DNA of 55,629 bases, taken from positions 1 to 55,629 of IMG/VR virus record IMGVR_UViG_3300049479_000313; one strand, written 5' to 3'. The stretch is from a virus. Its lineage: Duplodnaviria > Caudoviricetes. The position numbers and the translations under genes are program-made. The notes under the pieces were generated by a model. That model worked only from the letters and a program-made list of their open reading frames with translations, was not told the origin of the DNA and did not search any database. Positions 1-55,528 of this stretch are shown here, piece by piece; the stretch's first letter is position 1; each line of letters opens with the position of its first letter.

Positions 1-400
1 GCCCCCAGTGCAGTGAGTCGGCCCCCAGTTAGCGGCACGCGCCCCACCCCGGGCCACGGCACCTAACGCAAGGCCAGCACCGCGACCCACTTGGCAGCAG
101 GCCCCTACAACCGCAGCCCAACGCCCCAAACGTTACCGGAGGGTAACGGCGCCGAGTGAGCGGCGCGGCGGGTTGAGTAAGGGCCCAAGGCTGGCACCGG
201 CCAAGCGGGATGTGGGATACAGGTTCCGAGTAGCGTGGGGCATAAGGCCGACCCCTAGGAACCCCCGACCAACGTACGTTAGGCGACACGCCGACCCGTA
301 GGCCACGGGGCGGGTGTCGAAACGCTAACGGACCCCGGCTCGCCGACAGACGGCCAAAGTGCACGACACTACGGTGACACGAGACGGGAAATGCAGAGGC

Positions 401-430
401 CGAGCGACGCCTAACGTTAGGCGTCGCTCG
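401..430. repeat. Perfect 30-bp palindrome CGAGCGACGCCTAAC|GTTAGGCGTCGCTCG
   Basis: Read directly; the left 15 nt are the exact reverse complement of the right 15 nt; lies upstream of the first early gene. Confidence 0.97.
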
Positions 431-470
431 TAATGCGCAAGCCCGGTGCCAAGCCCGGGCTCACTCATTC

Positions 471-901
471 ACGACGGAGACACCCCCATGACGAAGCTCA
501 CGAAGGGCACCGAGGTCTACTACTTTGTAGACTGGGACGAGAAAGGCACCTGCGCCGTTCGGCGCTGTGTGGTCGGCTCCTGGGGCAAGGAGCAGGGCTT
601 CCTCTACGAGGCCCGCCCCGACGGTCAGCCCTTGCGGCATCGCATCTATACGCAGCGGGAAAGCATGACCCGGCGCATTCTGCCGGTGGCGGATGTGCCC
701 GACGTCAACGCGACCGCCCTCCGCTTCGGTGCGGAGTTCCGGGCGCACTGGCAGGCCCACTGCGAACTGCGCATCCAGCAATGGGGCGCCACCGACGCAG
801 GCTTCCGGCAAGTCATGCTGGACAACATCGCGGCACTCCACGAGCCCCGGGTCCTGTTCCCGTGGGAACGCTGAAACCCCCAACGACGGAGACACCCCAT
901 G
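471..901 (+). promoter_or_regulatory. Repeated translation-initiation/leader element ACGACGGAGACACCCC(C)ATG before the first two early genes
   Basis: Copies at 471-490 and 883-901, each containing GGAG and ending in the start ATG. Confidence 0.75.
488..874 (+). CDS. Early hypothetical protein
   Basis: ATG at 488 after GGAG; in frame with the 446..874 ORF; codon usage fits the genome. Confidence 0.75.
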   Translation: MTKLTKGTEVYYFVDWDEKGTCAVRRCVVGSWGKEQGFLYEARPDGQPLRHRIYTQRESMTRRILPVADVPDVNATALRFGAEFRAHWQAHCELRIQQWGATDAGFRQVMLDNIAALHEPRVLFPWER

Positions 902-1192
902 AAACCGAATCGCCTCGACCAGATGAGCTGGGCCACCGACGACATCCACGGAGACGAACCATCAGGTGCCCTTCAGGCAATCGACAAGTTCTTCGGGAAG
1001 CGCGTCCTGTCGTGGACCGACGCCGAAGTCTCGGGCGACCCCGTCCGCTACCGCGTCTTCCAGGAGGACATCGAGTCTCGCCAGCTCAAGATCTTCGACA
1101 GCGGCCCCCGAGGCTCTGTCGTCTTTGTGACGAGTAGCTACGCCTTGCTGCGCGACCGCAGCAGCAACTACACCATGCTCTTCAAGAAATGA
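899..1192 (+). CDS. Early hypothetical protein
   Basis: Same leader/RBS as the previous gene; ATGA overlap with the next gene. Confidence 0.7.
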   Translation: MKPNRLDQMSWATDDIHGDEPSGALQAIDKFFGKRVLSWTDAEVSGDPVRYRVFQEDIESRQLKIFDSGPRGSVVFVTSSYALLRDRSSNYTMLFKK

Positions 1193-1380
1193 CCAACTCC
1201 ATCCATGACGACCGCATCGCCGCCTTTGTGCGGGGCGATGTGATGACGTTCTACGCCGTAGTGGGCCACGAGTACGTGGAGAACGACGATCTCCAGGAGC
1301 TCCGGGCCCGCTTGCGCGCCGAGTACACCAGCCCCACCACTCTCTCTTCCATGCTCGGAGGTCTGACGCTCCATGCCTAA
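1189..1380 (+). CDS. Early hypothetical protein
   Basis: Translational coupling (ATGA) with the upstream gene. Confidence 0.55.
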   Translation: MTNSIHDDRIAAFVRGDVMTFYAVVGHEYVENDDLQELRARLRAEYTSPTTLSSMLGGLTLHA

Positions 1381-2124: not shown

Positions 2125-2128
2125 CGTT

Positions 2129-2383: not shown

Positions 2384-2406
2384 CCGCCACGCCACGGATT
2401 TATTGA

Positions 2407-2462: not shown

Positions 2463-2514
2463 CAGGAGTTTACTGAGCCCCCACTCAAATACACCCTCAC
2501 GGAGGAATGACCCC

Positions 2515-3367: not shown

Positions 3368-4848
3368 CAACCCACTTCATCCCCAGTGCCCAGCAGCAGG
3401 CGCTCTTCGACTGGATCACGCACGGCACGGGCAACGCCCGGGTGGACGCCCGGGCGGGCACCGGCAAGACCACCACGCTGGTGCAGGCCGCGCACCTCAT
3501 GGGCGGCACGGTGGCGTTTGTGGCCTTCAACAAGGCTATCGCCGACGAGATCCGCACACGGGTCGCCGGTCGGGCCAAGGTCGACGCGGCCACGTTTCAC
3601 GCGTTAGGCTATCGCGCATGGCGCAAGATGGCCCCGGGCGCCGTAGTGGACGGCAACAAGATGCCCGATCTAGCCGCCGGGCTGGGGTACGACCCCATCA
3701 CGGCCCAGTTCACGTTGAAGCTGGTGTCCTTTGCCAAGCAACACGCCATCGGCTTCCTGTGCCCGCTGGAGGACCGGAGCGCATGGTACCGGCTGGTGCA
3801 GCATCATGATCTGGAAGACCTCCTGCCGGAGCATCAGCAGTACGATGTAGACGAGCTGGTCACGAAGGCCATCAACCTGTTGCGCCTGAGCGTCGCTACC
3901 GACCAGACGCGCATCGACTTCGACGACCAGCTGTATGCCCCGCTCATCCACAATGCCCGCATGTGGCAGTACGATTGGGTCTTGATCGACGAGGCCCAGG
4001 ACACCAACCCGGCGCGGCGCGCACTGGCCAAGAAGATCCTCCGCCCGGGTGGGCGCTTGGTGGCTGTGGGCGACCCGTATCAGGGCATCTACGGGTTCAC
4101 CGGCGCGGACAGCGACGCGCTGGAGCTGATCGAGCGGCAGTTCAACACTCAGCGTTTCCCGCTGACGCGCACATATCGGTGCGCCAAGGCGGTGGTCCGA
4201 CTGGCGCAGACATGGGTGCCGGACTTTGAGCCGGGCCCCGACAACCCGGAGGGTACGGTGGACGAGTTGCCGTACGAGAAGCTCATTCCCGCGTTAGGTG
4301 CGCAGGACGCGGTGCTGTGCCGCACGATGAAGCCCTTGGTGGCGCTGGCCTATCAGGCTATTCGCGCCGGGGTGGGGTGCTACGTGGAGGGGCGGGACAT
4401 CGGGCGAGGGCTGAAGGCGCTGGTCGGCAAGTGGAAGGTGCGCACGGTGCCTGCGCTGGAGAAGCGGCTGGTGGCCTACCTCGAGCGGGAAACGGCGCGC
4501 TTCATGGCCAAGGGCGAGGAGCTCAAGGCCGCTGCCTTGGCGGACAAGGTGGAGACCCTGCTGGTCGTCATGGAGGGGCGGGCCACGGTGAACGAGGTGC
4601 TCACGGCACTGGACCAGTTGTTCGCCGACACGACCGGGCCGCAGCATCGTCCGGTGCTGTGCACCATCCACCGCAGCAAGGGCCGTGAGTGGGGTCGCGT
4701 ATGGTGGCTGGGCAAGGAGCAACTCCAGCCCAGCAAGTACGCACGGCAGGAATGGCAACTGACGCAGGAGCAGAACCTGATGTACGTGGCGGCCACTCGG
4801 GCCAAGACCACGCTGACCCTTGTCCCTCTTCCGGTGAAGACCTCATGA
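3364..4848 (+). CDS. UvrD/Rep-like superfamily 1 helicase
   Basis: ARAGTGKT Walker A, IDEAQD Walker B, VGDPYQGIYGF, TYRC, TIHRSKGRE, YVAATRA. Confidence 0.95.
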   Translation: MTTHFIPSAQQQALFDWITHGTGNARVDARAGTGKTTTLVQAAHLMGGTVAFVAFNKAIADEIRTRVAGRAKVDAATFHALGYRAWRKMAPGAVVDGNKMPDLAAGLGYDPITAQFTLKLVSFAKQHAIGFLCPLEDRSAWYRLVQHHDLEDLLPEHQQYDVDELVTKAINLLRLSVATDQTRIDFDDQLYAPLIHNARMWQYDWVLIDEAQDTNPARRALAKKILRPGGRLVAVGDPYQGIYGFTGADSDALELIERQFNTQRFPLTRTYRCAKAVVRLAQTWVPDFEPGPDNPEGTVDELPYEKLIPALGAQDAVLCRTMKPLVALAYQAIRAGVGCYVEGRDIGRGLKALVGKWKVRTVPALEKRLVAYLERETARFMAKGEELKAAALADKVETLLVVMEGRATVNEVLTALDQLFADTTGPQHRPVLCTIHRSKGREWGRVWWLGKEQLQPSKYARQEWQLTQEQNLMYVAATRAKTTLTLVPLPVKTS

Positions 4849-5024
4849 CTCGTTACTTGCTCATCGCGTTAGGTGCGGCGCTCCTCGCCGCCCTCATGCA
4901 TCTGGCGTTGTGGGTGGTGGAGTGGTGTCAGTGGCGTTGGCGGGCCCGGCAAGTGCAGCGCGACGTGCTGGAAGCCATGGAGCGGGCCATGCGCACCGAG
5001 GAGACGTTCCGTGGCCCCCAATAA
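4845..5024 (+). CDS. Small membrane protein
   Basis: ATG at 4845 overlapping the helicase stop; hydrophobic N-terminal helix. Confidence 0.55.
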   Translation: MTRYLLIALGAALLAALMHLALWVVEWCQWRWRARQVQRDVLEAMERAMRTEETFRGPQ

Positions 5025-5120: not shown

Positions 5121-5123
5121 ATC

Positions 5124-5735: not shown

Positions 5736-6287
5736 ATGTCCATCACGCGAGAACCGGTCCGCCTTGCGCAACGTGCGCGGGAGCTGCGGGCCCAGATGGA
5801 GGCGCTGGAACTGCAGGCCAAGGCGTTAGGCGAGCAGGCCCGGCAGCTGGAAGAAAGCGAAATCCCCGATGCCATGGACGAAGCGGGCATCACGAGCCTC
5901 ACGTTGGACGATGGCACCGTGCTGTCGGTGAAGCCCGTGGTGGCCGCCAGTATTCCGGCCAAGTACCGGCCCGACGCCTTGCGGTGGCTGACGGACCACG
6001 GCCACGCAGGGCTGATCAAGACCGAGGTGTCCATCACGGTGCCGCGTAAGGATCGTGGGCTCGTGCCCGCGCTGTTGGAGCAGCTGCGCCCGTTAGGCTA
6101 CAGCGTGGAAGCCACGGAGGGCGTCCACGCCCAGACGCTGGCCGCATGGGTGCGGGAGTATCTGGAGCAGGACGCCGAGCGGACGCAGTCGGGCCAGGAA
6201 GCCTTGCCCAACTTGCCCATGGAGTGGCTGGGCGTGTTCATCGGGCGCCGGGCCACGTTCAAGGCCCCCAAGAAGGAGGCCGTATGA
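5736..6287 (+). CDS. Replication-module hypothetical protein
   Basis: Coiled coil followed by IPDAMDEAG...ASIP...WL...VHAQTLAAWVRE, a pattern I associate with genes upstream of SSB in PolA-encoding phages. Confidence 0.75.
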   Translation: MSITREPVRLAQRARELRAQMEALELQAKALGEQARQLEESEIPDAMDEAGITSLTLDDGTVLSVKPVVAASIPAKYRPDALRWLTDHGHAGLIKTEVSITVPRKDRGLVPALLEQLRPLGYSVEATEGVHAQTLAAWVREYLEQDAERTQSGQEALPNLPMEWLGVFIGRRATFKAPKKEAV

Positions 6288-7706: not shown

Positions 7707-8884
7707 CCACGACGACGCAGGACCCGACGACGACGGTGCGCCTGACCCGCGCGCAGGAGCAAGCTGTGCAAGCCGTGCAGGCGTGGCGCCACCGGGCCGA
7801 TGACCCCTTGTTCTGGATGACGGGGTACGCGGGCACGGGCAAGAGCACGGTAGCCCGCTACGCGGCGGAAGGCGGCATCGTGGCCTTCCTCGCGCCGACG
7901 GGCAAGGCCGCCGCCGTGCTCCGGCGCAAGGGGGCCGACGGGGCCAGCACCATTCATCGGGTGCTGTACACCCCAAAGCAGCGCAGCAGCACCGCGTTGC
8001 AGCAGCTGACCAACATGCTCCAGCGTGCGGCGGGCCCCCTGGAACGGGCGGAGATCCAACGCAAGCTGGCCGACGAGATGGAGCGGCTGAAGCAGCCGCA
8101 CTGGGAGTATAACGAAGCCACATGGCTGCGCAGCGCGGACCTCGTGGTGGTGGACGAGGCCAGCATGGTCAGCGAGAAGGTGCTGCTCGATCTGCTGCGC
8201 ACTGTGCCCAAGGTGCTGTGCCTCGGAGACCCGGCGCAGTTGCCGCCCGTCATGGCGAAGTCGCCCTTGCTGGACCGGCGCCCGGACTTCCACTTGGAAG
8301 AGATCCACCGCCACTCGCTGGACAGCGCCGTCTTGCGCGCCGCCACCTATGTGCGACAGCATGGGCGCCTGCCGGGGCGCAGCGACGGGGACGACTATCG
8401 GGAAGTCCCGTTAGGCGAGGCCAACTGGGACGTGTTCCGCACGCCGGATCAGGTGCTGGTGTCGACGAACGAGGCCCGGCGCAACGTCAACACCCGGTTC
8501 CGAGCCCGGCTGGGCCTGACCGAGACCCTGTGCCCGGGCGATCGTATTGTGGTGCTCCGCAACAGCTACAACGAAGGACTCTACAACGGCACCACGGCGC
8601 GCGTGGTGGCTTGCACGGAGGACAGCATGTTCCCGAACACGTACTACACGGACGTGCTGTCGGACGAGGGCCCGGCCGAGAACATCAGTCTCCAGCTGCA
8701 AGAGGATCCTGCGAAGATGCACCGCGAGTCCGTGCCCGCCACCTATGGCTACGCGCTGACGGTGCACAAGGCACAGGGCAGTGAGTGGGATCATGTGCTG
8801 GTGTGGGTGCAGGGCAAGGTGAGCCCCGCGTGGCTGTACACGGCCCTTACCCGGGCGTCACAGCGGCTCACGATCGTCCGATGA
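7703..8884 (+). CDS. RecD/Dda-like superfamily 1B helicase
   Basis: GYAGTGKS, APTGKAA, VVDEASM, GDPAQLPPV, YALTVHKAQGSEW, YTALTRA. Confidence 0.95.
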   Translation: MTTTTQDPTTTVRLTRAQEQAVQAVQAWRHRADDPLFWMTGYAGTGKSTVARYAAEGGIVAFLAPTGKAAAVLRRKGADGASTIHRVLYTPKQRSSTALQQLTNMLQRAAGPLERAEIQRKLADEMERLKQPHWEYNEATWLRSADLVVVDEASMVSEKVLLDLLRTVPKVLCLGDPAQLPPVMAKSPLLDRRPDFHLEEIHRHSLDSAVLRAATYVRQHGRLPGRSDGDDYREVPLGEANWDVFRTPDQVLVSTNEARRNVNTRFRARLGLTETLCPGDRIVVLRNSYNEGLYNGTTARVVACTEDSMFPNTYYTDVLSDEGPAENISLQLQEDPAKMHRESVPATYGYALTVHKAQGSEWDHVLVWVQGKVSPAWLYTALTRASQRLTIVR

Positions 8885-10371
8885 AGGACGTGCGCGTGCT
8901 GTTTGGCCCGCCCGGCACGGGGAAGACCACGGCCCTGCTGGACATGGTGGACACGTTCTTGGACGAGGGCGGCGACCCGGGGCGCCTTGTGTTCAGCAGC
9001 TACACGCGGCAAGCCGCGCGGGAGGCCCGGGAGCGCGCGGCCGATCGCTTTGGGCTGGAGGACGAGGCCCTCCCCTACTTCCGCACGCTGCACGCGCTGG
9101 CCTTCCGCTTGTTGGGGCTGCGCCGCAGTGATGTGCTGAGTGACGACGATTACAAGGACGTGGCCAACAGCTTGGGTCTTGGCCTGAGCGGCCAGTGGGC
9201 CCGGGGTGCGGGCCATCCGGGCCAACAACGGGGCGACGAGTGCGCGGCCATCTATGCGTGGCACCGGGCCCGGGGCGGGACGTTGGCGGATGCGTGGCGG
9301 GCGGTCGGGACGGGCAACGTGCATCTCACGCAAGTCCAGACCTTCGTGGACGCGTTAGGCGAAGTCAAGCGCGCCCGGCACCGGCTGGACTTCGCCGACA
9401 TGTTGGACGAGTGCCATGTGGCTCCGCCCGTGGATCTGGTGATCTTGGACGAGGCGCAAGACCTGAGCGACGCGCAATGGCAGTTCGCCGTGCGCTTGGC
9501 CCGGAACGCCACGCGCGTGGTGGTCGCCGGGGACGACGATCAGGCCATCTACGACTTTGCCGGGGCGCATAGTGCCCGGTTCCGGGGTGTCGAGGGGCAG
9601 CGTCAGGTGCTGACCCAGTCGCACCGGCTGGCCGCGCCCATCCACCGTGTGGCCGAAGCCGTGGCCACACAGATCAAGTCCCGCGTGGCCAAGGCGTACC
9701 ATCCCGCCGCGCACGAGGGGCGGGTGCACACCGTGCCTACGCTGGACCACGTCACGTTAGGCGACGGCACGGTGCTACTGCTGGCTCGGCACAATCACCA
9801 GCTGCGGGAGCTGGTGTCCGTGGCTCGGGCCCAAGGCGTTGTCTACCACCATCAGGGGCGCTGGTCTACCGACACGGCGGCGGTGCGCGCGGCTGTGGCG
9901 TACGAGCGTCTGCGCCGGGGCGAGGGCGTGGCCCCGGACGTGGCTGACGCCGTGCGCTTGCTGGTGCCGGGGGCGGAATGGCAGGTGGTGCCGGGCACCA
10001 ATGCCCCGGTGCGCTGGCACGCCATCCGGTGGCCCTTTGAGGGGCGTCCCGAGTGGTACACGGCGCTGGTGCGCCTGGATGGCGATGACGTGGCCTATGT
10101 CCGGGCTCTCCGGCGTAAGGGAGAATCACTCCGAGGCCCCGGACGCGTGCGCATCAGCACCATTCACGGCGCCAAGGGCGGACAGGCCGATCATGTAGTG
10201 CTCTTGACGGATGTGAGTGCCCGCACCTACAATGGTGCCTGGATGGCGGGCGACGCGGAGGCCCGCGTGTGGTATGTGGGCGCGACGCGGGCCGCTCGCA
10301 CGTTGACGTTAGTTCGTTCACGCGGTCCCCGGGTCTGGCCCGGGTGGCCCGCGTTAGGCGTAGGCATCTAA
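8881..10371 (+). CDS. UvrD/Rep-like superfamily 1 helicase (second copy)
   Basis: GPPGTGKT, ILDEAQD, AGDDDQAIY, STIHGAKGG, YVGATRA; ATG at 8881. Confidence 0.93.
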   Translation: MKDVRVLFGPPGTGKTTALLDMVDTFLDEGGDPGRLVFSSYTRQAAREARERAADRFGLEDEALPYFRTLHALAFRLLGLRRSDVLSDDDYKDVANSLGLGLSGQWARGAGHPGQQRGDECAAIYAWHRARGGTLADAWRAVGTGNVHLTQVQTFVDALGEVKRARHRLDFADMLDECHVAPPVDLVILDEAQDLSDAQWQFAVRLARNATRVVVAGDDDQAIYDFAGAHSARFRGVEGQRQVLTQSHRLAAPIHRVAEAVATQIKSRVAKAYHPAAHEGRVHTVPTLDHVTLGDGTVLLLARHNHQLRELVSVARAQGVVYHHQGRWSTDTAAVRAAVAYERLRRGEGVAPDVADAVRLLVPGAEWQVVPGTNAPVRWHAIRWPFEGRPEWYTALVRLDGDDVAYVRALRRKGESLRGPGRVRISTIHGAKGGQADHVVLLTDVSARTYNGAWMAGDAEARVWYVGATRAARTLTLVRSRGPRVWPGWPALGVGI

Positions 10372-12012: not shown

Positions 12013-12833
12013 TCATCCCGGGGCGGAGCGGGGCGCTCTTCGAGGTGGAGAATGGCATGCTGTGGAAGCGCATGGGGGGCGCGCGTGGGTCGGCGCGCTT
12101 GGCAGTACAGTGCGCCCGGCAGCAGGCGGCTCTCTCGTCTCACGTGCTCCCTCCCGGGATGGCGGTCACCCCTGTGACCGCCATCCAGGACGAGCGTCCA
12201 CACGTGTTCTCGTTTCAGATGCCCTTCTATCGGGAGCACCTCCATGCGACCCAGTTCGTGCAGTACGCGGGCGCGGAACAGCTGCAGGAGGCGTCTCGCC
12301 TGTTGTTGCGGCTGATGTCCGGGAATCTTCGTGCAGCGCCGTTAGGCGTGTTGTCCCCGGGGTGGAGCCGTTCCCTTGTGGAACAGCTGCAGGATCGTCC
12401 GTCCATCCCCGGGGTGGCACGCTTCACGCTGTGGGCCCGCGAGCATGACGTGTGGGGTGCGCTCATCCCGTCCGGCCCCGCCTATCACGGGGACCTCACG
12501 TGGGGCAATGTGCTGTGGTCGCTGGATCCGGGAGCCACGCCGCATCAACTGATCGACTACACGGATGCCCCATGGGAGACGCCCCTGATCGATGCGGCCA
12601 AGCTGTTGATGGACTGCGCGCTCCGCTGGACGTTCCGCCTGCAGGGGGAGGTCCCTTCCCCCACGACGGAAGTCCTGTGCGACCAGCTACACGAGCAACT
12701 GCTGGCCCAGTTGTCCCCGGATGAACGGCGCGTGGCCCGGGTGCTCCAGTACCACTACACACTTCGTCTGTTCCCGTACAACCCCACCCACGAAGACTTT
12801 CTCTCACACGAGATTCTCCGACTCTTCCCATGA
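12009..12833 (+). CDS. APH/choline-kinase-like small-molecule kinase
   Basis: Brenner motif YHGDLTWGN and metal-binding LID, followed by DAAKL. Confidence 0.8.
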   Translation: MIIPGRSGALFEVENGMLWKRMGGARGSARLAVQCARQQAALSSHVLPPGMAVTPVTAIQDERPHVFSFQMPFYREHLHATQFVQYAGAEQLQEASRLLLRLMSGNLRAAPLGVLSPGWSRSLVEQLQDRPSIPGVARFTLWAREHDVWGALIPSGPAYHGDLTWGNVLWSLDPGATPHQLIDYTDAPWETPLIDAAKLLMDCALRWTFRLQGEVPSPTTEVLCDQLHEQLLAQLSPDERRVARVLQYHYTLRLFPYNPTHEDFLSHEILRLFP

Positions 12834-21333: not shown

Positions 21334-21535
21334 CCCTCGCCCCTTGTCCTTGTCCGTGCATCGCGTGCCGGGCGGCGAGTGGGTGCGCGTGCCGGGCGAA
21401 GTGCACACGGTCACGGTGCTCAATCCGCGCACGGTGGGCGCCCTGCGCATGGCCAAGGCGTTAGGCGCCCGGCTGGTGGTCGAGTACGACGACCACCTCA
21501 CGCTGCGCATCTACGTGGAACAGGAGGTACGATGA
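21320..21535 (+). CDS. Hypothetical protein
   Basis: GAGGAG RBS. Confidence 0.55.
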   Translation: MTSIDPRPLSLSVHRVPGGEWVRVPGEVHTVTVLNPRTVGALRMAKALGARLVVEYDDHLTLRIYVEQEVR

Positions 21536-28381: not shown

Positions 28382-28435
28382 CCCCAGAGGCGCGGGGCGT
28401 AGCACAGCGCCGGACCTTTACCCGTTAGGTGACCT

Positions 28436-33917: not shown

Positions 33918-33918
33918 C

Positions 33919-39233: not shown

Positions 39234-40613
39234 GTGAGCCAGCTTCCCGTCTACTTCGGCCCGCGCAAAGCGACCATCAAGAGTCGCACGGCACACGCCT
39301 TGGCGCTGTGGCGCTCCCGGGACGGGATCTTGTCTCCGGCCACAGAGAACACCCCCATCGCCATCAACACCTTCACAGGTAACACGGCCCGCCTGATGAA
39401 GGACTCGCTCGGGCGCTTGGTGCCGGTGGCCGAGTACATGATGGCCCCGGGCATGTGGGACTTGGACGGAGACGGAGTGCTAGAGACCCCGGTGCTCATC
39501 ACCGGCGACGGGGACAGCAATCGGGTGCCCTACTCGCAAGACTTCACCAACTGGACCGCGACCAATGCCCCGTCCATCCTCTCGTCCACGCTGACGTTAG
39601 GTGAGTTGGTGTTGTCCCTGCTGGAAGACAACAGCGGTTCGTTGCAAGAGTACTACCAGAGCCAAGCTATTTCGGCCACCGGGCTGAACGCGCGCACCGT
39701 GTTCTCGTTCTTCATCGCCAAGGGTACTTCCAGCGCAGCAGCGGGTTCGGGGGTCCAGGTGTGGGATAACACGGCCTCCGCACTGCGCTCCGAAGTTACG
39801 TGGACATGGGCGCAGACGTCCAAGGGCATTTGGAAGCCCACCATCGCGGTGGGCACGGGTCTTAATTTGGCGCTGGAATACTTCGGTCGTCACGCATATG
39901 CCCAGCCCACCACCAATCTGCTCGGTCTGGCCGACGTGTGGCGCGTGTACGTGCGCAGCACCACGGCATTTGCCCCCGGCAACGTCAATTATTTCCGGGT
40001 CTACCCGGCGTTCACGGCGGCACAGCAGGGCAATGAGTTCTTCGGCGGGTTCATGGCGTCGTCCCGGTCGTCACCGTACATCAAGACGACGACAACGGGG
40101 GACCGCTCCAACGGAGCGAACACCTGGATCATGACGTTCAGTGGGGCGCCGCAGGCGCTCACACTGGCGGTGCGCTTCATCTACACGGGCAGTGCCGTGT
40201 GCCATGTGTCTGGGCAGCAAGGCATGGTCGCGGGGATCGGTCCCGTAGGAGGGGGCAATCCTCAGATGTCGATCCTCGCGTCGGACGCCTCGGCGGCGAA
40301 TTTCTATTACGCCTTCATGAACAACGGATCCAACAGCATCACGGTTCTGCACAACACGACCCCTTCGGCCGGAGATCTGGTGCTGCTGCGGCTGGCCGTC
40401 CGGGCGGACGGATCCATTGTGTTGGGCCAGTCGCTCAACGGCGGGGCTGAAGTGGCCGTGACGAGTGGCAATCCCTTCGGGTTGCCCGCGAACTGGGGCG
40501 CGAATACGGCGTTGCGCTTGGTGGAGGGCGCCTTCGGAAAGGAGCAGTACCTTGGCGTGGGAGTTTTCGCTGGGGAGCCCACCGCGCAATACCTGCTGGA
40601 GACGATGGAATGA
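39234..40613 (+). CDS. Tail/virion protein with lectin-like beta-sandwich domains
   Basis: Synteny; N.VPYSQDFTNW segment; S/T/G/N-rich. Confidence 0.6.
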   Translation: MSQLPVYFGPRKATIKSRTAHALALWRSRDGILSPATENTPIAINTFTGNTARLMKDSLGRLVPVAEYMMAPGMWDLDGDGVLETPVLITGDGDSNRVPYSQDFTNWTATNAPSILSSTLTLGELVLSLLEDNSGSLQEYYQSQAISATGLNARTVFSFFIAKGTSSAAAGSGVQVWDNTASALRSEVTWTWAQTSKGIWKPTIAVGTGLNLALEYFGRHAYAQPTTNLLGLADVWRVYVRSTTAFAPGNVNYFRVYPAFTAAQQGNEFFGGFMASSRSSPYIKTTTTGDRSNGANTWIMTFSGAPQALTLAVRFIYTGSAVCHVSGQQGMVAGIGPVGGGNPQMSILASDASAANFYYAFMNNGSNSITVLHNTTPSAGDLVLLRLAVRADGSIVLGQSLNGGAEVAVTSGNPFGLPANWGANTALRLVEGAFGKEQYLGVGVFAGEPTAQYLLETME

Positions 40614-49431: not shown

Positions 49432-50364
49432 GTGACGATCATCGTTCGGCCCAGCGGGCACCGGCACCGGGGGCGCTTCTACGACAACGTTCCCTATGTC
49501 GTCGGTGGCACGGCGGAGCAAGTGCTCGACCTGTACCTGCCGACCAGCCGGTTCGGCGGGGGTGCGTTGTTTGCGCCCCCATACCCGCTGGTGATGTTCT
49601 TTCACGGTGGCGGCTGGCAAACGGGAAATAACAACATCGGCCCAACCCATGTCGTGCGCGCGATGACCGCGCAGGGCTGCGCCGTGGCGTCGATCAACTA
49701 CACGCACTCGGGGACGACGGGCTGCTGGCCACAGTACATCTACGACCTCAAGGCGGGCATCCGATTCCTGCGGGCCAACGCGGGGAAGTTCCTGCTGGAC
49801 GCCAAGCGCTTCATGACGTGGGGCTACTCGTCCGGGGCGCATGGGTCGATGATGTGCGCGCTGACGGCGAACGGCTCGCCGCGCGACGGTGCGATGGGCA
49901 ATGGCTCTGTCAGCGAGAGTTTGCTGGGGGCGATCATGTGGGCAGCGCCGGTCAACTTCATCGAGCGTGACGCCGACTATGTGACTCTGAACGCGCCTCC
50001 TTACTCGCTGGGGCTCACGCCTGCGCATACGACCTGCGCGACCGACAGCCCGGAGGCGAAGCTGTTCTGGGGGTCGAGCAACACGACCCTTACGCCCTGC
50101 TCGGGCGCGGGCCTCACGCTGTCGGCGGAAGCCAACGGTGAACTGCTGCTGGCCTATGGGGCGCCCTCGCTCTACTGGGGGCATGGCGAACTCGACGCCA
50201 CGATTCCGTTCCTGCAATCGGAGCGGGCGCACGCGGCGGCGGTGAGCCTCGGGATTGATTCGACCTACACGAAGTACACGGGCCTGACGCATGGCTCGAT
50301 CACGAGCGACGCAACCTCTGTTGCCGACGCGCAAGCGTGGGCACGCACCCTTCTCGCCGCCTAA
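49432..50364 (+). CDS. Alpha/beta-hydrolase carboxylesterase (HSL/BD-FAE-like)
   Basis: LDLYLP, FFHGGGW oxyanion motif, GYSSG nucleophile elbow, HGELD..IP, THG; GTG start. Confidence 0.88.
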   Translation: MTIIVRPSGHRHRGRFYDNVPYVVGGTAEQVLDLYLPTSRFGGGALFAPPYPLVMFFHGGGWQTGNNNIGPTHVVRAMTAQGCAVASINYTHSGTTGCWPQYIYDLKAGIRFLRANAGKFLLDAKRFMTWGYSSGAHGSMMCALTANGSPRDGAMGNGSVSESLLGAIMWAAPVNFIERDADYVTLNAPPYSLGLTPAHTTCATDSPEAKLFWGSSNTTLTPCSGAGLTLSAEANGELLLAYGAPSLYWGHGELDATIPFLQSERAHAAAVSLGIDSTYTKYTGLTHGSITSDATSVADAQAWARTLLAA

Positions 50365-50379
50365 CGCGGAGACTCGGCA

Positions 50380-51207
50380 ATGGCTGACAATTTCCCCCTG
50401 ACACCCGGCACGGGCCGCAAGGCCGCGACGGATGACGTGACCTACTCGGGCGAAGCCGCCGACGTGCAGCTCGTGCGACTGGTCGGGGTCACGGGCGCGG
50501 AGGGCAGCAAGACGGTCGTCGAGCCTCCCGCCGTCGATGAGACGTATGGGTTCCCGATAGACGTGAAGCGCACGCCCGCGACCTTCGCAGAGGACGCGGC
50601 GCATGCATCAGGTGACCTCGGCGTGCAGGTACTGTCGGTGCGACGCGACACGCCAGCCGGATCAGCGGGCACGGCGGGCGATTATCAGCCCCCGACGACC
50701 GACGACCTCGGGCGCACATGGGTGCGCTCGGAGTTGAAGAAGGTGGTCGCCGTCACGCCGACCGTTTCGACGACGGCGTACACGGCGGGCGATCAAGTCG
50801 GTGGCGTCATGCCGTTCGCAGGGATGGCGCACCAGAACGGTGGGCCGGGGCGCATCGTCGGCGCGTCGCTTGTGTCGGCAGATACCGAGTTTCCCCCAAT
50901 TGAGCTGTGGCTCTTTCGCAACTCGCCCACGATGGTCGGTTCCGACAATGCGGCGTTCGATATCACGGATGCGAACATGCTGACCGCCGATTTCATCGGG
51001 ATCATCGACCTGTCGGCGTGGCGGGCCCTGACCTCCGGTGGTGTGGCGTATGGCATGAACGGCGGGTTTGCGTTAGGTGGGGCGCCGATGCATTACCTGT
51101 GCGACACGGACGACACGGCCATCTATGGGGTCATGGTCACGCGCGCAGCGCAGACGCTGGCGAGCACGTCGGACTTCAAGGTCACGCTGCTCACGGTGCT
51201 GGAGTAA
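50380..51207 (+). CDS. Hypothetical virion/tail fibre protein
   Basis: AEDAAHASGDLGV..L.VRRD and AYTAGDQVGG segments of the kind seen in phage fibre modules. Confidence 0.6.
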   Translation: MADNFPLTPGTGRKAATDDVTYSGEAADVQLVRLVGVTGAEGSKTVVEPPAVDETYGFPIDVKRTPATFAEDAAHASGDLGVQVLSVRRDTPAGSAGTAGDYQPPTTDDLGRTWVRSELKKVVAVTPTVSTTAYTAGDQVGGVMPFAGMAHQNGGPGRIVGASLVSADTEFPPIELWLFRNSPTMVGSDNAAFDITDANMLTADFIGIIDLSAWRALTSGGVAYGMNGGFALGGAPMHYLCDTDDTAIYGVMVTRAAQTLASTSDFKVTLLTVLE

Positions 51208-51215: not shown

Positions 51216-51950
51216 ATGCCATCGCGCGACTTCGAGCGTGGGTCATCGCACCGACTCGGCACGGCGAGCACGGTCAACACGGGCGCGAACGCCTTCACGC
51301 TCGCGGCGCTAGTGACCGTCGAGTCATTGCCGGGCGCGGCGGCGTACCACGCGGCTATCGCGCTGAACTCGGCTACTGCGGCGCGCGAGATCGTGCTCGA
51401 CCTTAATGGCGACACTGGGCCGGGGACGCTCGCGCTGAAGGTGGGCGCAACGCGCGTGGTGCCTTCCACGTCGATCATCCCAAGCACGGATGGGCGCTGG
51501 ATGATCCTCGTGGGGAAGAAGGCGTCGGGTACGGTCAACGCCGACTTCATGCTGTACGACTTCACGACGCAGACGTGGACCGAGTTCAGCACGTCGGGCA
51601 CGGTCGCAGACCGCACGGCGGGGGCCACCGACATGAACGTGGGCTCGGATGGCGCGGCGAACTACTGGGATGGGCGCATCGCGCTCGCCATGTACCTGCC
51701 CGAGAATGTGGCGAAGGAACACCTGTACAAACTTGCCATGAGTCGCTCCGAATGGTACGCGCTCTTCGGTGGCGGTGGTCCGGTCACGCGCGCCTATCAC
51801 TCACGGCAGGCCAATCAGGCAGGGTCGTTGTTCGACCTAACGATCCCCCAAGTCAATGGGGGCGACATTGACCTCGGGTCAGTAACCGTCGTCTACACCA
51901 CCGGGACGGCGCCGCCGGTCGATGGCACGCCCCTGCCGCCGGGGTTCTAG
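51216..51950 (+). CDS. LamG/concanavalin A-like domain protein
   Basis: AFTLAALV, DGRW..L, VGSD....WDGRIA. Confidence 0.6.
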   Translation: MPSRDFERGSSHRLGTASTVNTGANAFTLAALVTVESLPGAAAYHAAIALNSATAAREIVLDLNGDTGPGTLALKVGATRVVPSTSIIPSTDGRWMILVGKKASGTVNADFMLYDFTTQTWTEFSTSGTVADRTAGATDMNVGSDGAANYWDGRIALAMYLPENVAKEHLYKLAMSRSEWYALFGGGGPVTRAYHSRQANQAGSLFDLTIPQVNGGDIDLGSVTVVYTTGTAPPVDGTPLPPGF

Positions 51951-52976: not shown

Positions 52977-53323
52977 GCACCGCCTTCGCCCCTCCGGAGC
53001 TGAGCCCGGGCAATGACTCTGACGTCTACGCCCACTTCACCAAGCGCCACGCCACCACGCCCCGGCTCCGCGTCGGGGCCACGGGCCTCACGGTCAGCGC
53101 GTACCTGTCGCTCACGTTAGGCGGCGCGGCCATCGGAGGCACGACAATCAGCTGCCCAGAGATCGGTACCGACGGCGAGTACCTCGGCGTTCTGACCGGG
53201 TCCCTCTTGACCACGGCGCTCGCCGCGCTGGCGGACGGTGCTTCGATCTACCTCGCCATCCTGGTGGGCACGTCGGTGCATCAATGGCGCGTGTGCGTGG
53301 TGCGCAAGCACCCAACTAGTTAA
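52973..53323 (+). CDS. Hypothetical protein
   Basis: ATGA coupling. Confidence 0.6.
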   Translation: MSTAFAPPELSPGNDSDVYAHFTKRHATTPRLRVGATGLTVSAYLSLTLGGAAIGGTTISCPEIGTDGEYLGVLTGSLLTTALAALADGASIYLAILVGTSVHQWRVCVVRKHPTS

Positions 53324-53345
53324 CGGAGGAAGGCCCGGGTATGTT

Positions 53346-53377
53346 TGTGGCCCCCAGTAGGGGGCCACACGACTTTT
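53346..53377 (+). terminator. Probable rho-independent terminator of the late operon
   Basis: TGTGGCCCCC-AGTA-GGGGGCCACA stem followed by CGACTTTT. Confidence 0.6.
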
Positions 53378-53396
53378 ACCCAACGGAGCACGACGC

Positions 53397-54119
53397 ATGA
53401 AGACGTTACTCGACCTCTCTGAGCGCGACATCACACGCATCAAGGAAGGCGCCCAACACTACGGCCCCAGCTGGAAGCAGCGAGGTGGGGCCGGGGCCTA
53501 CATGGTGGGCATCCGCAAGTGGGACCGCATAGCGCATCGCCTACGGGAAGGCAGCTGGGGCGCGGTGATCGCGGCCGACCGGCGCGCGGAAGGCATCATG
53601 GATGACATCCGCGACCTGCGCTGCTACTTGCTGATGATGCTGGCCGAGCACGCCACCTTCGGGAGCGAGCACTGGCGCACGTCACTGGCCTATGTGGACG
53701 GCGTGCCGGAGGCCATCTCCCGATGTCTGGCCGAACGGATCCCCAGCGAGTTCATCCCGGAACGGGCCATGGCCGAGGTGGAAACCATCGTCGAGATCTT
53801 TGGCTGGGACGTGTTCCGCGCGCTGGAAGTGAACGCCGGGCTCCGCCCCAAGCTGCAGCAGATGGTGGCCTTCCTGTACGAGGTGGATCTGGTCCACGGC
53901 GAGGACGTGCCCGACGTGCTCAAGGGCGACCGCGCGGACCTCGTGACGCTGTACCTGCTCCGCAACGGGGAACGCCTGCTGTTCCCGGGGGAGATTTTCA
54001 ACGCGGGGCTCAACACCGTGCGCAAGGCCCTGACCCTGGAAGGCGACGAGGTCATGCTGGCCACGGATGCCGTCGCGGCGGCGGTGCGACTGCCCCGGAC
54101 GCGGATCATCGCGGAATGA
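53397..54119 (+). CDS. Nucleotide-modification-associated (Nmad1/DUF1599-like) all-alpha protein
   Basis: HYGPSWKQRGGAGAYM..RKWDRI...EGIMDDIRDLRCYL, a signature I associate with hmU-phage modification loci. Confidence 0.65.
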   Translation: MKTLLDLSERDITRIKEGAQHYGPSWKQRGGAGAYMVGIRKWDRIAHRLREGSWGAVIAADRRAEGIMDDIRDLRCYLLMMLAEHATFGSEHWRTSLAYVDGVPEAISRCLAERIPSEFIPERAMAEVETIVEIFGWDVFRALEVNAGLRPKLQQMVAFLYEVDLVHGEDVPDVLKGDRADLVTLYLLRNGERLLFPGEIFNAGLNTVRKALTLEGDEVMLATDAVAAAVRLPRTRIIAE

Positions 54120-55528
54120 GCCCCTTCAAGACGGCGCCGTACGCCCATCAGGCGACGGCGCTGGACCGCATGGCGGACGCCCCGGGCTTCGCCCTGATGA
54201 TGGGCGTGGGCACGGGCAAGAGCTGGTGCGTGCTGAACGATGCGCACCTAAACGGCGTGGACACGCTCGTCATCGTGGCGCCCAGCGGCGTGCACGAAAG
54301 CACATGGGCCCGCGAGGAGATCCCCAAGCACTGGTCCGGGCCCGAGCCCCTCGTGGGGGTGACCCGCTCCGGACGCAAGGACTACGGGCTGCGGGAACTC
54401 CTGCAGACGCCTAACGCCCCGGTGCGCATTGCGTGCGTGCATTACGAGGCCCTGACCAGCGTGTACGGGCTTGACGCCGTGGCCGCGCTGCTGCGTCAGT
54501 CGCGCACCGGGGCGTACATGGTGCTGGACGAGTCGCACAATATCAAGACCCCCACCAGTCGGCGCACCAAGGCCAGTTGGAAGCTGGGCCAGTTGGCGGC
54601 CTACCGGCGCATCCTGAGCGGAACCATGACCACGCGCGGATACGAGGATCTCTACGCGCAGTTCCGCTTCCTGAACCCGGCCATCATCGGGTCGCCGTCG
54701 TTTACGGCGTTCAAGCAGGAGTTCTGCGAACTGGTGACGGGCCACGCCAGTGGCAACTCGCACACGTTCCAGAAGCTGGTGGGCTACAAGAACCTGGATC
54801 GACTGTTCAAGCGCCTCGCGCCCTTCACGTTCCAGGCGCACAAGGACCAGTGTCTGGACCTGCCCGCCCAGACATGGGCCACGCGTCCGGTCGTGCTCAG
54901 CGAGGCGCAACAGCAGCACTACAACGCGCTGCGCTCGCAGAGCATCACGATGGCGGAGAACGGGGCCATCATCTCTGCCGAACAGGCCATCACCCAGCTC
55001 CTGCGCCTGCAGCAAGTGTTGGCCGGGCACCTGCCCACGGGCGCCGGAACGTACGAGCCGCTGCCCTGCCCCCGGGTAGACGCCTGCGTGGATGTGGCCG
55101 CCCAGTGCGACGGCAAGGTGCTGGTGTGGGCCCGGTTCATCCCGGACCGGACGCGCCTGCTAGACGCCTTCCAGAAGGCGCAGATCGGCGCCGTGCTCTA
55201 CACCGGGCAGGACGACGAGCTCCAGCGCTTCCGGCGCGATCCGGGCCTGAAGGCGCTGATCCTCAGCGCGGCGATGGGCGGCGCCGGGCTCACGCTGAAC
55301 GAGGCTCCGAACGCGATCCACTATTCGTTAAGCTTCAAGTGGGTCGATCTGGAGCAGAGCGAAGGGCGCAATCACCGCTCCGGGCAGTTAGTCCCGGTGT
55401 CGTATACCACGCTCGTGGCCCCGGGGTCGGTGGACGAGCATGTGCTGGCCACCCTCCGGGCCAAGCAGGACGTGGCCGACGTGGTGCGCAACGCGGACCA
55501 GTTGGCCCGCTGGGTGCGGCCCACGTAA
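54116..55528 (+). CDS. SNF2-family (superfamily 2) helicase
   Basis: PYAHQ, MGVGTGKS, VLDESH, ILSGT, GAGLTL, QSEGRNHRSGQ. Confidence 0.93.
   Translation: MSPFKTAPYAHQATALDRMADAPGFALMMGVGTGKSWCVLNDAHLNGVDTLVIVAPSGVHESTWAREEIPKHWSGPEPLVGVTRSGRKDYGLRELLQTPNAPVRIACVHYEALTSVYGLDAVAALLRQSRTGAYMVLDESHNIKTPTSRRTKASWKLGQLAAYRRILSGTMTTRGYEDLYAQFRFLNPAIIGSPSFTAFKQEFCELVTGHASGNSHTFQKLVGYKNLDRLFKRLAPFTFQAHKDQCLDLPAQTWATRPVVLSEAQQQHYNALRSQSITMAENGAIISAEQAITQLLRLQQVLAGHLPTGAGTYEPLPCPRVDACVDVAAQCDGKVLVWARFIPDRTRLLDAFQKAQIGAVLYTGQDDELQRFRRDPGLKALILSAAMGGAGLTLNEAPNAIHYSLSFKWVDLEQSEGRNHRSGQLVPVSYTTLVAPGSVDEHVLATLRAKQDVADVVRNADQLARWVRPT

Follow-up and report, generated by a model that had tools for sequence, protein, structure and literature searches.

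The genome of the phage studied here (the window, a stretch of 55,629 nucleotides analysed at its full length) holds the heptamer CGTTAGG/CCTAACG, more exactly CGTTAGGC(G), at near-host density, and this is very probably a genome word of the host lineage which its phages share. Accordingly, CGTTAGGC would be abundant in the phage because some soil Gemmatimonadaceae and Chthoniobacterales hold the same word by the thousands. In all likelihood the host of the phage belongs to such a word-enriched lineage; judged by composition only, Gemmatimonadaceae of the G011 type match the phage best in dialect, GC content and tetranucleotide usage. A published description of the word as a genome signature was not found, and the signature is apparently undescribed so far.

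Abundance and reading frames of the word in the phage

The preliminary description had estimated about 43 copies, about 32 of them on the coding strand. The exact count is 43 (32 on the plus and 11 on the minus strand) at coinciding coordinates, as compared to 3-4 copies expected from dinucleotide, synonymous-codon and codon-order shuffles, which bears out the proposed over-representation beyond chance. Dinucleotide shuffling (n = 100) yielded a mean of 3.04 copies (sd 1.71, largest 8) and never reached 43; synonymous-codon shuffling (n = 1000) yielded 3.97 forward (maximum 8) and 4.41 reverse copies (maximum 10), and codon-order shuffling 3.52 and 3.55, both of these nulls including the extragenic copies, which are left untouched by shuffling. 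In a de novo k-mer ranking the word came out on top at each length tried (z of 27 for the 7-mer), and the 9-mer CGTTAGGCG occurs 24 times in the window against 0.3 expected. The base following the word is C in 33 and T in 8 of the 43 copies, while T at position -1 is found in a single one. Relative to an order-1 Markov expectation the 8-mer is 30-fold enriched in the window and 49-95-fold in sampled host DNA; one-mismatch versions are not enriched in the phage. The copies are located as follows.

62..68, minus: word copy, non-coding left end
277..283, plus: word copy (CGTTAGGCG), non-coding left end
401..430: perfect 30-bp palindrome (verified), some 58 bp ahead of gene 1, formed by two overlapping inverted word copies (410-416, minus; 415-421, plus)
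3602..3608, plus: ALG in frame (GCG-TTA-GGC), SF1 helicase gene 9
4292..4298, plus: ALG in frame, gene 9
4867..4873, plus: ALG in frame, gene 10
5824..5830, plus: ALG in frame, gene 13
6091..6097, plus: PLG in frame, gene 13
8409..8415, plus: PLG in frame, Dda-like helicase gene 17
9353..9359, plus: ALG in frame, helicase gene 18
9755..9761, plus: TLG in frame, gene 18
10352..10358, plus: ALG in frame, gene 18
12340..12346, plus: PLG in frame, gene 21 (APH-like)
16234..16240, plus: ALG in frame, HD-domain gene 25
17072..17078, plus: ALG in frame, DNA polymerase A
18626..18632, plus: ALG in frame, DNA polymerase A
19653..19659, plus: PLG in frame, primase
20664..20670, plus: ALG in frame, primase
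21459..21465, plus: ALG in frame, gene 32
22530..22536, minus: antisense, AGC-CTA-ACG (S-L-T), gene 34
22689..22695, minus: antisense, CCT-AAC-G (P-N-G), gene 35
23856..23862, plus: TLG in frame, large terminase
25902..25908, plus: ALG in frame, portal
26674..26680, plus: TLG in frame, head morphogenesis gene 40
26854..26860, plus: PLG in frame, gene 40
27085..27091, plus: ALG in frame, gene 40
28177..28183, plus: ALG in frame, gene 40
28423..28429, plus: intergenic, directly upstream of scaffold gene
31076..31082, minus: antisense, P-N-A, gene 44
31274..31280, plus: TLG in frame, gene 45
33913..33919, minus: antisense, TAA stop of gene 48 (CC-TAA-CG)
35071..35077, plus: ALG in frame, tape measure
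37456..37462, plus: ALG in frame, tape measure
38557..38563, plus: TLG in frame, gene 51
39595..39601, plus: TLG in frame, gene 52
42047..42053, minus: antisense, P-N-G, gene 53
43142..43148, minus: antisense, P-N-A, gene 53
50360..50366, minus: antisense, TAA stop of gene 66
51071..51077, plus: ALG in frame, gene 67
51836..51842, minus: antisense, GAC-CTA-ACG (D-L-T), gene 68
53115..53121, plus: TLG in frame, gene 70
54410..54416, minus: antisense, P-N-A, SNF2 helicase gene 72

All 72 predicted genes lie on the plus strand. Genic copies account for 29 of the 32 plus-strand occurrences, and all 29 show the NCG-TTA-GGN phase that had been claimed (xCG-TTA-GGx; 17 ALG, 7 TLG and 5 PLG), the remaining three (277, 415 and 28423) being intergenic. 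These 29 make up the larger part of the 46 TTA codons in the window; TTA is used at 29 of 54 [APTS]LG sites as compared to 17 of 1692 other Leu codons (Fisher p 2e-36), so that outside the CG_GG context it amounts to 1% of Leu codons. The reverse copies had been ascribed to Pro-Asn and TAA stops, which holds for five and two (33913 and 50360) of the 11, respectively; two further copies encode Leu-Thr (CTA-ACG) and two are intergenic (62 and 410). Reverse copies occupy 5 of 16 Pro-Asn-G sites, an enrichment, and the tripeptide ALG is itself about twofold in excess (31 observed vs 16.4 expected, reached by none of 500 shuffles). Since reverse copies are enriched too and ALG itself is over-represented, the word is a double-stranded DNA signal and not a translational one, in line with the earlier notion of a DNA-level signal kept against codon bias.

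The spacing of the word is random. Its largest gap (7.2 kb, 43142 to 50360) is matched by about 10% of uniform random placements and is, taken alone, not significant; in genes 53-72, however, [APT]LG is depleted (3 observed vs 10.2 expected), and genes 1-52 show an excess (46 vs 23.6), so that a sparse 40-51 kb block, as described previously, is weakly supported by tripeptide content and not by the gap. The orientation shifts along the window, from 30 plus and 6 minus copies before 40 kb to 2 plus and 5 minus thereafter (p 0.008, on small numbers). The phage encodes its own replication enzymes and a thymidine-hypermodification gene set (5-hmdU kinase); no tRNA gene is present, and no lysogeny gene, repressor, nickase or methylase was found among the 63 of 72 genes scanned.

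The word in bacterial genomes and in other viruses

Enriched bacterial genomes carry 1,900-9,000 copies each on both strands (0.7-1.6 per kb), those of Gemmatimonadaceae MAGs 3,800-9,000. Set against a control word, the numbers were 9047 vs 1064 in G007, 6708 vs 508 in G009, 3840 vs 486 in G011, 5012 vs 566 in G008 and 4033 vs 751 in G010, and G012-G015 hold 1895-4172 copies. Within a sample of the family Gemmatimonadaceae, 26 of 101 genomes were enriched at least 3-fold, and in one genus all 13 species were (graded 4-18-fold). The core is shared by 4 of 81 genomes of the order Chthoniobacterales (MAGs), which belongs to a second phylum, while none of 80 other genomes from the wider Gemmatimonadota was enriched, all being below the control word. 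Thus, the earlier suggestion that Gemmatimonadota are rich in the motif applies to some Gemmatimonadaceae and fails for the phylum at large, and the idea of a host signature which the phage has in common with genomes of the Gemmatimonadota type is supported.

In the 26 enriched family genomes the strands are balanced (24741 forward vs 24726 reverse), and no replichore polarity was seen over a 1.05-Mb host contig (203 vs 191). The flanks form dialects, with T at -1 in 98% of copies in G008, 80% in G010, 50% in G007 and G009 and 20% in G011, in which one-mismatch variants are enriched (873 observed vs 414 expected). Host copies are embedded by the cheap codon routes of the phage (xCG-TTA-GGx, CCT-AAC-G, C-CTA-ACG and CC-TAA-CG stops), and the frame cost hierarchy is alike in hosts and phage; in the hosts, antisense and sense frames are used to the same extent, and inverted word pairs are not enriched. 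ComEC and DprA were found in all five enriched genomes searched and in 10 and 11 of 14 control genomes, respectively; as both are near-universal, their presence proves little. Among five enriched genomes, which are incomplete MAGs, Vsr was found in three but not in G007 or G009, both of which rank among the three densest; RecC was found in one and AddB (alpha type) in none above the cut-off, these being the only two models tried for such nucleases. None of the sampled hosts shows enrichment of a second word of the phage, GCCCGGGC, and the true host is therefore not among them.

The word is held at comparable density by no fewer than four further viral records of high GC content: G004 (37 vs 6 copies of the reversed control word), G002 (23 vs 3), the provirus G005 (21 vs 3) and G003 (9 vs 2). 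G004 has no protein in common with the window at E<=1e-5, and in G002 orthologues none of 10 window sites is shared, the protein positions being non-conserved. Distant phage relatives lack the word (86 copies in 1.44 Mb, 161 loci), ten of these copies residing in the 2.1 kb of L160 alone. In pooled counts from five phages and three host samples, the frame classes were filled at 70/168 vs 91/224 sites (F1), 15/62 vs 69/122 (R0), 10/390 vs 61/371 (R2) and 0/316 vs 26/360 (F2). F1 is thus the sole class reaching host level in phages, and genic sense and antisense copies stand at 70:25 in the phages vs 117:130 in the hosts, a profile for which background codon use offers no explanation.

Related systems and possible causes

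Of the mechanisms put forward in the preliminary description, a signal of the uptake-like or self kind still fits best. The mechanism may, in our tentative view, most resemble that of DNA uptake sequences, the USS of Pasteurellaceae and the DUS of Neisseriaceae. These, too, are short asymmetric words at about 1 per kb and tens to hundreds of times expectation, equal on both strands and not polarised along replichores, with preferred frames within genes that shape tripeptide content, with dialects that differ between lineages and with an excess of one-mismatch forms. Haemophilus phage HP1, whose host is rich in USS, holds 17 USS cores in 32.4 kb vs 3 of the control, which is a comparable density and a comparable relation of phage to host. 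Proteome and dialect properties of USS and DUS are covered in portions of PMC2817400 and PMC3630211. The taxa concerned here are soil Gemmatimonadaceae and Chthoniobacterales, for which no uptake sequence is known to have been described. Several observations count against the uptake reading: the core is shared across two phyla, inverted pairs, terminator-like in many USS and DUS, are not in surplus in the hosts, the strand and frame profile is specific to phages, and the word stands near host level in a phage with no lysogeny gene among the 63 scanned, whereas a drive by uptake and recombination would be expected to have little effect on virulent phages. Known uptake sequences are, to our knowledge, family-specific, and we know of no competence in Gemmatimonadaceae or Chthoniobacterales.

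A serious rival, to which we give a smaller chance, is that a host nuclease or defence system takes the word as the mark of self DNA and that phages mimic it. As with Chi for RecBCD, hosts would saturate their own genomes and phages, including virulent ones, would be selected to carry the word, perhaps preferentially in one direction with respect to the DNA end attacked, with other, probably horizontally mobile, machinery reading it. This would account for the near-host density in the present phage, whose scanned genes include none for lysogeny, for the word in G004, for the strand and frame bias of all five co-oriented phages, for the orientation switch along the window and for the patchy occurrence across two phyla, a pattern typically shown by mobile defence genes. 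Chi and the polar KOPS/AIMS words are likewise asymmetric 7-8-mers over-represented in the host, and a phage carrying Chi-like words could in principle be protected. Against this reading, no strand skew was seen along 1.05 Mb of host chromosome, so that the polarity of a Chi-like signal, one of the earlier suggestions, is lacking there, RecC and AddB were found in one and none of the five enriched, incomplete genomes, and F2, also a sense-strand class, is empty in phages. The present word is, moreover, far denser, more enriched and made of rare codons, whereas known Chi words consist of common codons with far lower enrichment, and Chi aside we know of no defence system with an abundant 8-bp self word. 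Unlikely, in our estimate, is a conversion drive coupled to repair or methylation, in the style of proposals for HIP1 or of very-short-patch repair, by which a sequence-specific host enzyme would turn near-matches into the word in any replicating DNA, the phage gaining nothing. As it would act inside the cell, it would reach virulent phages and phages without detectable common proteins alike; a non-polar, strand-symmetric host word agrees with it, and the patchy trait could ride on a mobile pair of methylase and repair enzyme. It predicts, however, a depletion of one-mismatch forms where G011 shows enrichment, Vsr was not found in the dense, incomplete MAGs G007 and G009, a methylase is lacking among the phage genes scanned, and changes towards ALG need more than single-base conversion; the enrichment of about 50-100-fold also greatly exceeds the effect of very-short-patch repair on CCWGG in E. 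coli. HIP1 itself (GCGATCGC, cyanobacteria) is similarly a hyper-abundant octamer in coding DNA, lineage-wide at variable density. The HIP1-like signal proposed previously nevertheless differs: excerpts of bioRxiv 10.64898/2026.06.24.733823 describe HIP1 as a methylase-recognised palindrome with quasi-periodic placement, whereas the present word is asymmetric and randomly spaced.

A function encoded by the phage, with the word as the place where a phage protein binds, nicks, primes or modifies the DNA (e.g. a stoperator-type repressor, a nickase or the 5-hmdU kinase), is very improbable, and the findings in host genomes and in an unrelated phage largely refute it. The operator-like palindrome upstream of gene 1 and the thymidine-hypermodification set speak for it, the word offering three T positions over both strands. 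Against it stand enrichment in G004 and in bacterial genomes by the thousands, the lack of the word in distant relatives, and the scan without repressor, nickase or methylase; passages of PMC8989533, a paper on thymidine hypermodification, report no sequence-specific motif. Because a phage without detectable common protein carries the word, a phage-encoded partition or nucleoid site, as considered earlier, is also unlikely. The stoperators of cluster A mycobacteriophages (L5 gp71 sites) similarly comprise tens of asymmetric sites across the genome, mostly in one orientation to transcription. They differ in being 13-14 bp long, mostly intergenic and specific to phage and repressor, whereas the present word is 8-9 bp, mostly genic, and common to host genomes and a phage without detectable common protein, with no repressor found. 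Least probable of all, and refuted as primary cause, is selection for translation, be it bldA-like control by the rare TTA codon or a TTA-GG pause or frameshift site. The single TTA frame of all genic plus copies and the host level of F1 in phages would fit; TTA is nonetheless rare among Leu codons outside CG_GG, the phage has no tRNA gene, antisense, intergenic and stop-codon copies are enriched as well, and in the hosts antisense frames are used no less than sense frames.

If the uptake-like reading is correct, sequence-specific host machinery would read the word as double-stranded DNA, and its preference would lead to accumulation by the route of USS and DUS, biased uptake and recombination building up copies. 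Phage DNA circulating and recombining in the same gene pool would be pulled along, and it might be hypothesized that in this way about half of the cheapest sites in the phage genome were filled and its amino acids shifted towards Ala-Leu-Gly.

The word in the phage genome

The word CGTTAGG/CCTAACG occurs 43 times in the window, 32 times on the plus and 11 times on the minus strand, and it ranks first in a de novo ranking of words at k = 6 to 9. Dinucleotide shuffling yielded 3.0 ± 1.7 copies and reached 43 in none of 100 shuffles, while the means were 3.97 forward and 4.41 reverse copies in 1000 synonymous-codon shuffles and 3.52 forward and 3.55 reverse under codon-order shuffling. The over-representation noted in the preliminary description thus holds against all three nulls, each of which gives about three to four copies. 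The true core is CGTTAGGC(G), the 3' base being C in 33 and T in eight of the 43 copies. All 29 genic plus-strand copies lie in the frame xCG-TTA-GGx and account for 29 of the 46 TTA codons in the window; TTA is used at 29 of 54 [APTS]-Leu-Gly sites, compared to 17 of 1692 Leu codons elsewhere (p 2e-36). Accordingly, the in-frame use of TTA, the rarity of this codon outside the word, and the reading of reverse copies as Pro-Asn or as TAA stops (33913 and 50360), all of which had been put forward from the sequence, were borne out.

To quantify this usage, every peptide site able to carry the word synonymously was counted, in the window as well as in three host contigs, and the classes by which the word is written into codons were compared (see table). 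Further copies reside in non-coding DNA at 62, 277, 410, 415 and 28423. One-mismatch forms are not enriched in the phage window. Ala-Leu-Gly is itself in excess in the window proteins (31 observed, 16.4 expected; reached by 0 of 500 shuffles), and the tripeptides [APT]LG number 46 in genes 1-52, where 23.6 are expected, and three in genes 53-72, where 10.2 are expected. The word is a signal at the level of DNA, and it has altered the protein sequence of the phage. Control through TTA codons of the bldA type fails as an explanation, given the scarcity of TTA outside the context and the enrichment of antisense and non-coding copies as well, and a translational signal as the cause of the word has a next to negligible likelihood.

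Table. Sites carrying the word, as a fraction of the sites able to carry it synonymously. Order of values: window; contig G011:C1; contig G007:C2; contig G008:C4; five motif-rich phages pooled; hosts pooled.
F1, sense xCG-TTA-GGx: 29/54; 50/144; 27/58; 14/22; 70/168; 91/224
R0, antisense CCT-AAC-G (Pro-Asn): 5/16; 34/59; 19/33; 16/30; 15/62; 69/122
R2, antisense C-CTA-ACG (Leu-Thr): 2/118 (2/119 in the count made alongside the host contigs); 45/225; 12/105; 4/41; 10/390; 61/371
F2, sense C-GTT-AGG (Val-Arg): 0/97; 11/217; 9/105; 6/38; 0/316; 26/360
TAA stops inside CC-TAA-CG (not pooled): 2/20; 7/23; 0/6; 5/10

Two inverted copies of the word form a perfect 30-bp palindrome at 401-430, approximately 58 bp 5' of gene 1, whose role might be that of an operator, an origin element or a hairpin. 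Near-copies of the word and an inverted repeat CGTTACC...GGTAACG are also present in the non-coding left end, which measures 487 bp. A scan of IMG/VR with the 16-bp palindromic double site of the window returned a single provirus, G001 (locus L161; 62 kb; 40610-40621), in which the word is not enriched (three copies, three of the control word); the 16-bp site common to both is probably due to chance. The right end of the window (55530-55629), 3' of the last gene, is non-coding and contains a hairpin-like inverted repeat, CACGAAATG...CATTTCGTG; no terminal repeat was seen between the right and left ends.

The window (55,629 bp, 66.3% GC) is a complete or nearly complete IMG/VR virus record, estimated at 93% completeness. 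Our gene calls, which are based on codon statistics and not on a standard gene finder, place all 72 predicted genes on the plus strand. The main features are:

genes 9, 17 and 18, plus strand: three SF1 helicases
11173-16901, plus strand: thymidine-hypermodification set (TAGT/aGPT-type transferase, APH-like and P-loop kinase-like proteins, 5-hmdU DNA kinase, thymidylate-synthase homologue, HD-domain protein)
16906-18777, plus strand: family A DNA polymerase
19523-21070, plus strand: primase
23093-30285, plus strand: large terminase, portal, head morphogenesis, scaffold and major capsid
34785-38408, plus strand: tape measure
44679-45275, plus strand: endolysin
54116-55528, plus strand: SNF2 helicase

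No tRNA genes were found in the window, and among the 63 of 72 genes scanned there was no integrase, repressor, methylase or nuclease, nor were any lysogeny genes seen. The product of gene 69 (51954-52976), which contains imperfect tandem repeats of approximately 66 and 132 bp (families D1 and D2), is a repetitive Ala/Thr-rich protein that may serve as a fibre or for decoration. The cultured relatives are all distant, none exceeding 40% identity: the portal shares about 30% of its residues with its counterparts in Bordetella MW2/CN-type and Pseudomonas YuA-type phages, and an Acidobacteria phage encodes a capsid protein 40% identical to that of the window. A portal protein search of IMG/VR gave no closer relatives, and an alignment search of IMG/VR and JGI metagenomes gave relatives of at most 45% identity only; two portal relatives, P0002 (78%) and P0003 (62%), sit on ENA or Logan contigs. 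The esterase encoded by gene 66 was uninformative as a clue to the host, as its close homologues lie on phage-sized contigs and others are about 30% identical.

The 5-hmdU DNA kinase matches PF18723 (E 7.5e-42), and the thymidylate-synthase homologue is a probable dUMP hydroxymethylase. Thymidines in the virion are probably modified, and the three T positions of the word would therefore differ chemically in the DNA of the phage. The word is absent from the stretch 12347-16233 within the hypermodification block. A second word is over-represented too: the palindrome GCCCGGGC has 33 sites between 453 and 53004 (13.7 ± 2.9 under synonymous shuffles), which occur in all three frames and, with two exceptions, before 36 kb (31/33).

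Bacterial and viral genomes enriched in the word

A scan of a genome collection with a paired 9-mer pattern matched at least 120 loci. Among the 120 matches listed, Gemmatimonadaceae/Gemmatimonadales, Chthoniobacterales, Thermomicrobiales and Pirellulales MAGs recurred, and 19 loci had the word in at least five separate places within 8 kb, the labelled ones being mostly Gemmatimonadaceae (seven) and Chthoniobacterales (three). Repeated 9-mer matches in Thermomicrobiales (loci L302, L312, L313 and L359) and Pirellulales (L289, L300, L348 and L360) comprised only two to three word places per 8-kb locus. The enriched genomes hold 1,895-9,047 copies each, corresponding to 0.7-1.6 per kb (see table), and the 8-mer core exceeds an order-1 Markov expectation 49- to 95-fold in sampled host DNA and 30-fold in the window.

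Table. Copies of the word and of the control word (the word reversed). Bacterial taxa are the labels of the sequence records; the bacterial genomes are MAGs and may be incomplete.
G007, Gemmatimonadaceae, 6.1 Mb: word 9047, control 1064
G009, Gemmatimonadaceae, 4.1 Mb: word 6708, control 508
G011, Gemmatimonadaceae, 3.9 Mb: word 3840, control 486
G008, Chthoniobacterales, 3.2 Mb: word 5012, control 566
G010, Chthoniobacterales, 4.2 Mb: word 4033, control 751
G012-G015, further MAGs, 2.6-4.0 Mb: word 1895-4172, control 207-627
G004, virus (complete), 45.6 kb: word 37, control 6
G002, virus, 41.7 kb: word 23, control 3
G005, provirus, 49.2 kb: word 21, control 3
G003, virus, 13.5 kb: word 9, control 2

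Enrichment is patchy across taxa. All 13 genomes sampled in the genus of G007 are enriched (4- to 18-fold), and four of 81 in the order of G008 reach at least 3-fold. The family of G011 (n=101) includes 10 genomes at 10-fold or more, 16 at 3-10, 14 at 1-3, five at 0.3-1 and 56 below 0.3 (10, 16, 13, 5 and 54, respectively, among the 98 that remain without the unpublished G113, G136 and G137). Across a sample of the phylum Gemmatimonadota, none of 80 other genomes was enriched (none of 79 without the unpublished G072), all being below the control.

In a 142-kb Gemmatimonadaceae contig the word occurs in all stop-free frames and in both orientations relative to genes, and the contigs of G007 and G008 display the same hierarchy, with two cheap classes high and two costly ones low. 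The strands are equal over 26 enriched genomes (24741 and 24726 copies), 20 samples along a 1.05-Mb contig gave 203 and 191 copies and no switch, and no consistent strand skew was seen over that contig or over the 142-kb one. Apparent runs of plus-strand copies among the search matches were an artefact of how matches are listed, the 142-kb contig having 95 plus and 79 minus copies. Even spacing was likewise rejected, as the spacing is random everywhere (CV ~1), and inverted pairs are not enriched in 0.7 Mb of host DNA, where convergent or divergent copies at most 60 bp apart are very rare. While CGTTAGGC is common to all lineages, the preceding base varies in the manner of dialects: T stands at position -1 in 98% of copies in G008, 80% in G010, 50% each in G007 and G009, 20% in G011 and in one of the 43 phage copies. 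Several one-mismatch forms are enriched 3- to 27-fold in G011 (873 observed in total, 414 expected), which argues for a tolerant reader and not for a conversion process.

Among viruses, a paired-word scan of IMG/VR identified high-GC records enriched over their full length. G004 and the window have no protein in common at E<=1e-5, whereas G002 shares replication genes (35-50% identity) and G005 shares tail genes (about 30% identity) with it. None of ten window sites in six orthologous genes recurs at the same aligned position in G002, which has other residues there; the sites thus originate independently, at positions where the protein varies. The word is at background across 161 loci (1.44 Mb; 160 distant portal relatives and the palindrome-derived L161), with 86 copies in total, the exception being L160, a locus of 2.1 kb and 70% GC with ten copies, two of them as TAA stops. 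Six low- or mid-GC viral contigs (L216, L250, L194, L238, L254 and L279) have the word as part of short tandem arrays (period about 12-36 bp); such local repetition is unrelated to the enrichment along whole genomes.

Taken together, the word is very probably a signature of the host lineage that is present in the phage. By composition, the best-fitting host type would be that of G011, which has the same GC as the phage (0.66) and a tetranucleotide correlation of 0.59 with it (0.32-0.46 for the others). G011 tolerates any first base before the core, however, and the phage does not; moreover, GCCCGGGC is not enriched in the sampled hosts (0.0-0.1 per kb versus 0.59 per kb in the window), although G005 has seven copies. 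On this evidence, the actual host is likely to be a relative outside the sample. In addition, the five motif-rich phages carry the word at host level in F1 but depart from the hosts in R0, R2 and F2, with a genic sense-to-antisense ratio of 70:25 compared to 117:130. As the background usage of CTA, CCT and AGG is alike in phages and hosts, codon cost does not explain this profile; since all five phages have co-oriented genes, it amounts to a bias for either one DNA strand or the frame F1. The contrast hints that the word acts differently on phages and on chromosomes.

Possible readers of the word

The closest known kind of sequence is the DNA uptake sequence of Pasteurellaceae and Neisseriaceae (USS and DUS, respectively), whose presence makes competent cells favour a DNA molecule for uptake. 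Resemblances include a density of about one per kb, equal strands, no polarity, preferred coding frames, weakly conserved positions, shaping of the proteome, lineage dialects and enriched near-matches. Inverted USS/DUS pairs acting as terminators are common, if not strictly defining, and such pairs are not frequent in the hosts considered here. Phages may also carry such sequences, as Haemophilus phage HP1 has 17 copies of what we take to be the USS core in 32.4 kb (three of its control word). By this analogy, it might be speculated that an uptake-like recognition drive acts on the word, the likeliest single reading here but one that we hold tentatively and at clearly less than an even chance. 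ComEC and DprA are each present in five of five enriched genomes and, being near-universal in controls (10/14 and 11/14), do not discriminate. An uptake drive pure and simple is difficult to reconcile with a phage in which no lysogeny genes were seen, with one core common to two phyla, and with five phages showing a frame and strand profile absent in hosts. The presence of the word in virulent-type phages, the strand bias and the patchiness would be accounted for if the word were a mark of self, recognised by a nuclease or defence system of the host and mimicked by phages. Chi, a word of this sort, is read by enzymes of the RecBCD or AddAB type; with one model each on incomplete MAGs, RecC (PF04257) was found in one of five enriched genomes and AddB (TIGR02786) above cut-off in none. 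Chi and KOPS words show a strand skew that follows replication, which is not seen for the word in the hosts. The lack of polarity along 1.05 Mb argues against a polar word of the Chi or KOPS type, and we consider a self-marker unlikely, though worth serious attention.

A drive coupled to repair or methylation appears still less probable. Conversion of the Vsr type is disfavoured, as Vsr was detected in three of five genomes, the two that lack it (G007 and G009) being among the three densest of the set, and as near-matches are enriched instead of depleted. The cyanobacterial octamer HIP1 is a methylase target and its own reverse complement, whereas the word is not palindromic, CGTTAGGC differing from GCCTAACG. 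Sequence-specific thymidine hypermodification was rejected as a cause, since no sequence-specific motif is reported in the accessible part of the work on this modification (PMC8989533) and the host data render it unnecessary. A site encoded by the phage itself, such as a stoperator or operator array peculiar to one phage and its repressor, is highly improbable given the enrichment in a phage sharing no detectable protein with the window and in bacterial genomes, and the lack of a repressor among the 63 of 72 genes scanned. What probability remains beyond these and the translational reading falls to other causes.

It might be hypothesized that CGTTAGGC either marks self in a horizontally mobile and as yet undescribed recognition system of soil bacteria, or constitutes a DNA uptake sequence common across phyla, which would be the first beyond Pasteurellaceae and Neisseriaceae; even taken jointly, these two possibilities are rather doubtful. 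In the former case, an undescribed host machinery would recognise the word in DNA, two or more phyla would include genomes that have become saturated with it, each in its own dialect, and phages, including virulent ones, would be selected for strand-polar mimicry.

Implications for soil bacteria and their phages

To our knowledge, short words of such abundance occur in only a handful of bacterial groups. USS and DUS occur in two proteobacterial families and HIP1 in cyanobacteria, and Chi or KOPS are present at much lower density. Searches of a mostly open-access literature brought up primers, unrelated sequences and community surveys, and nothing that describes this word or an uptake sequence for Gemmatimonadaceae or Chthoniobacterales. 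Our data point to another hyper-abundant word, in soil lineages of two phyla that have received little study; it is enriched 50-100 fold, biases both codon choice and the amino-acid sequence, and is mirrored in phages of those lineages. The word is a handle for assigning uncultured phages to hosts from sequence only, and if it indeed serves self-recognition or uptake, it would predict phage-host pairs in soil lineages that are hard to culture. It also makes it a testable question whether Gemmatimonadaceae and Chthoniobacterales are naturally transformable or have a means of recognising self.
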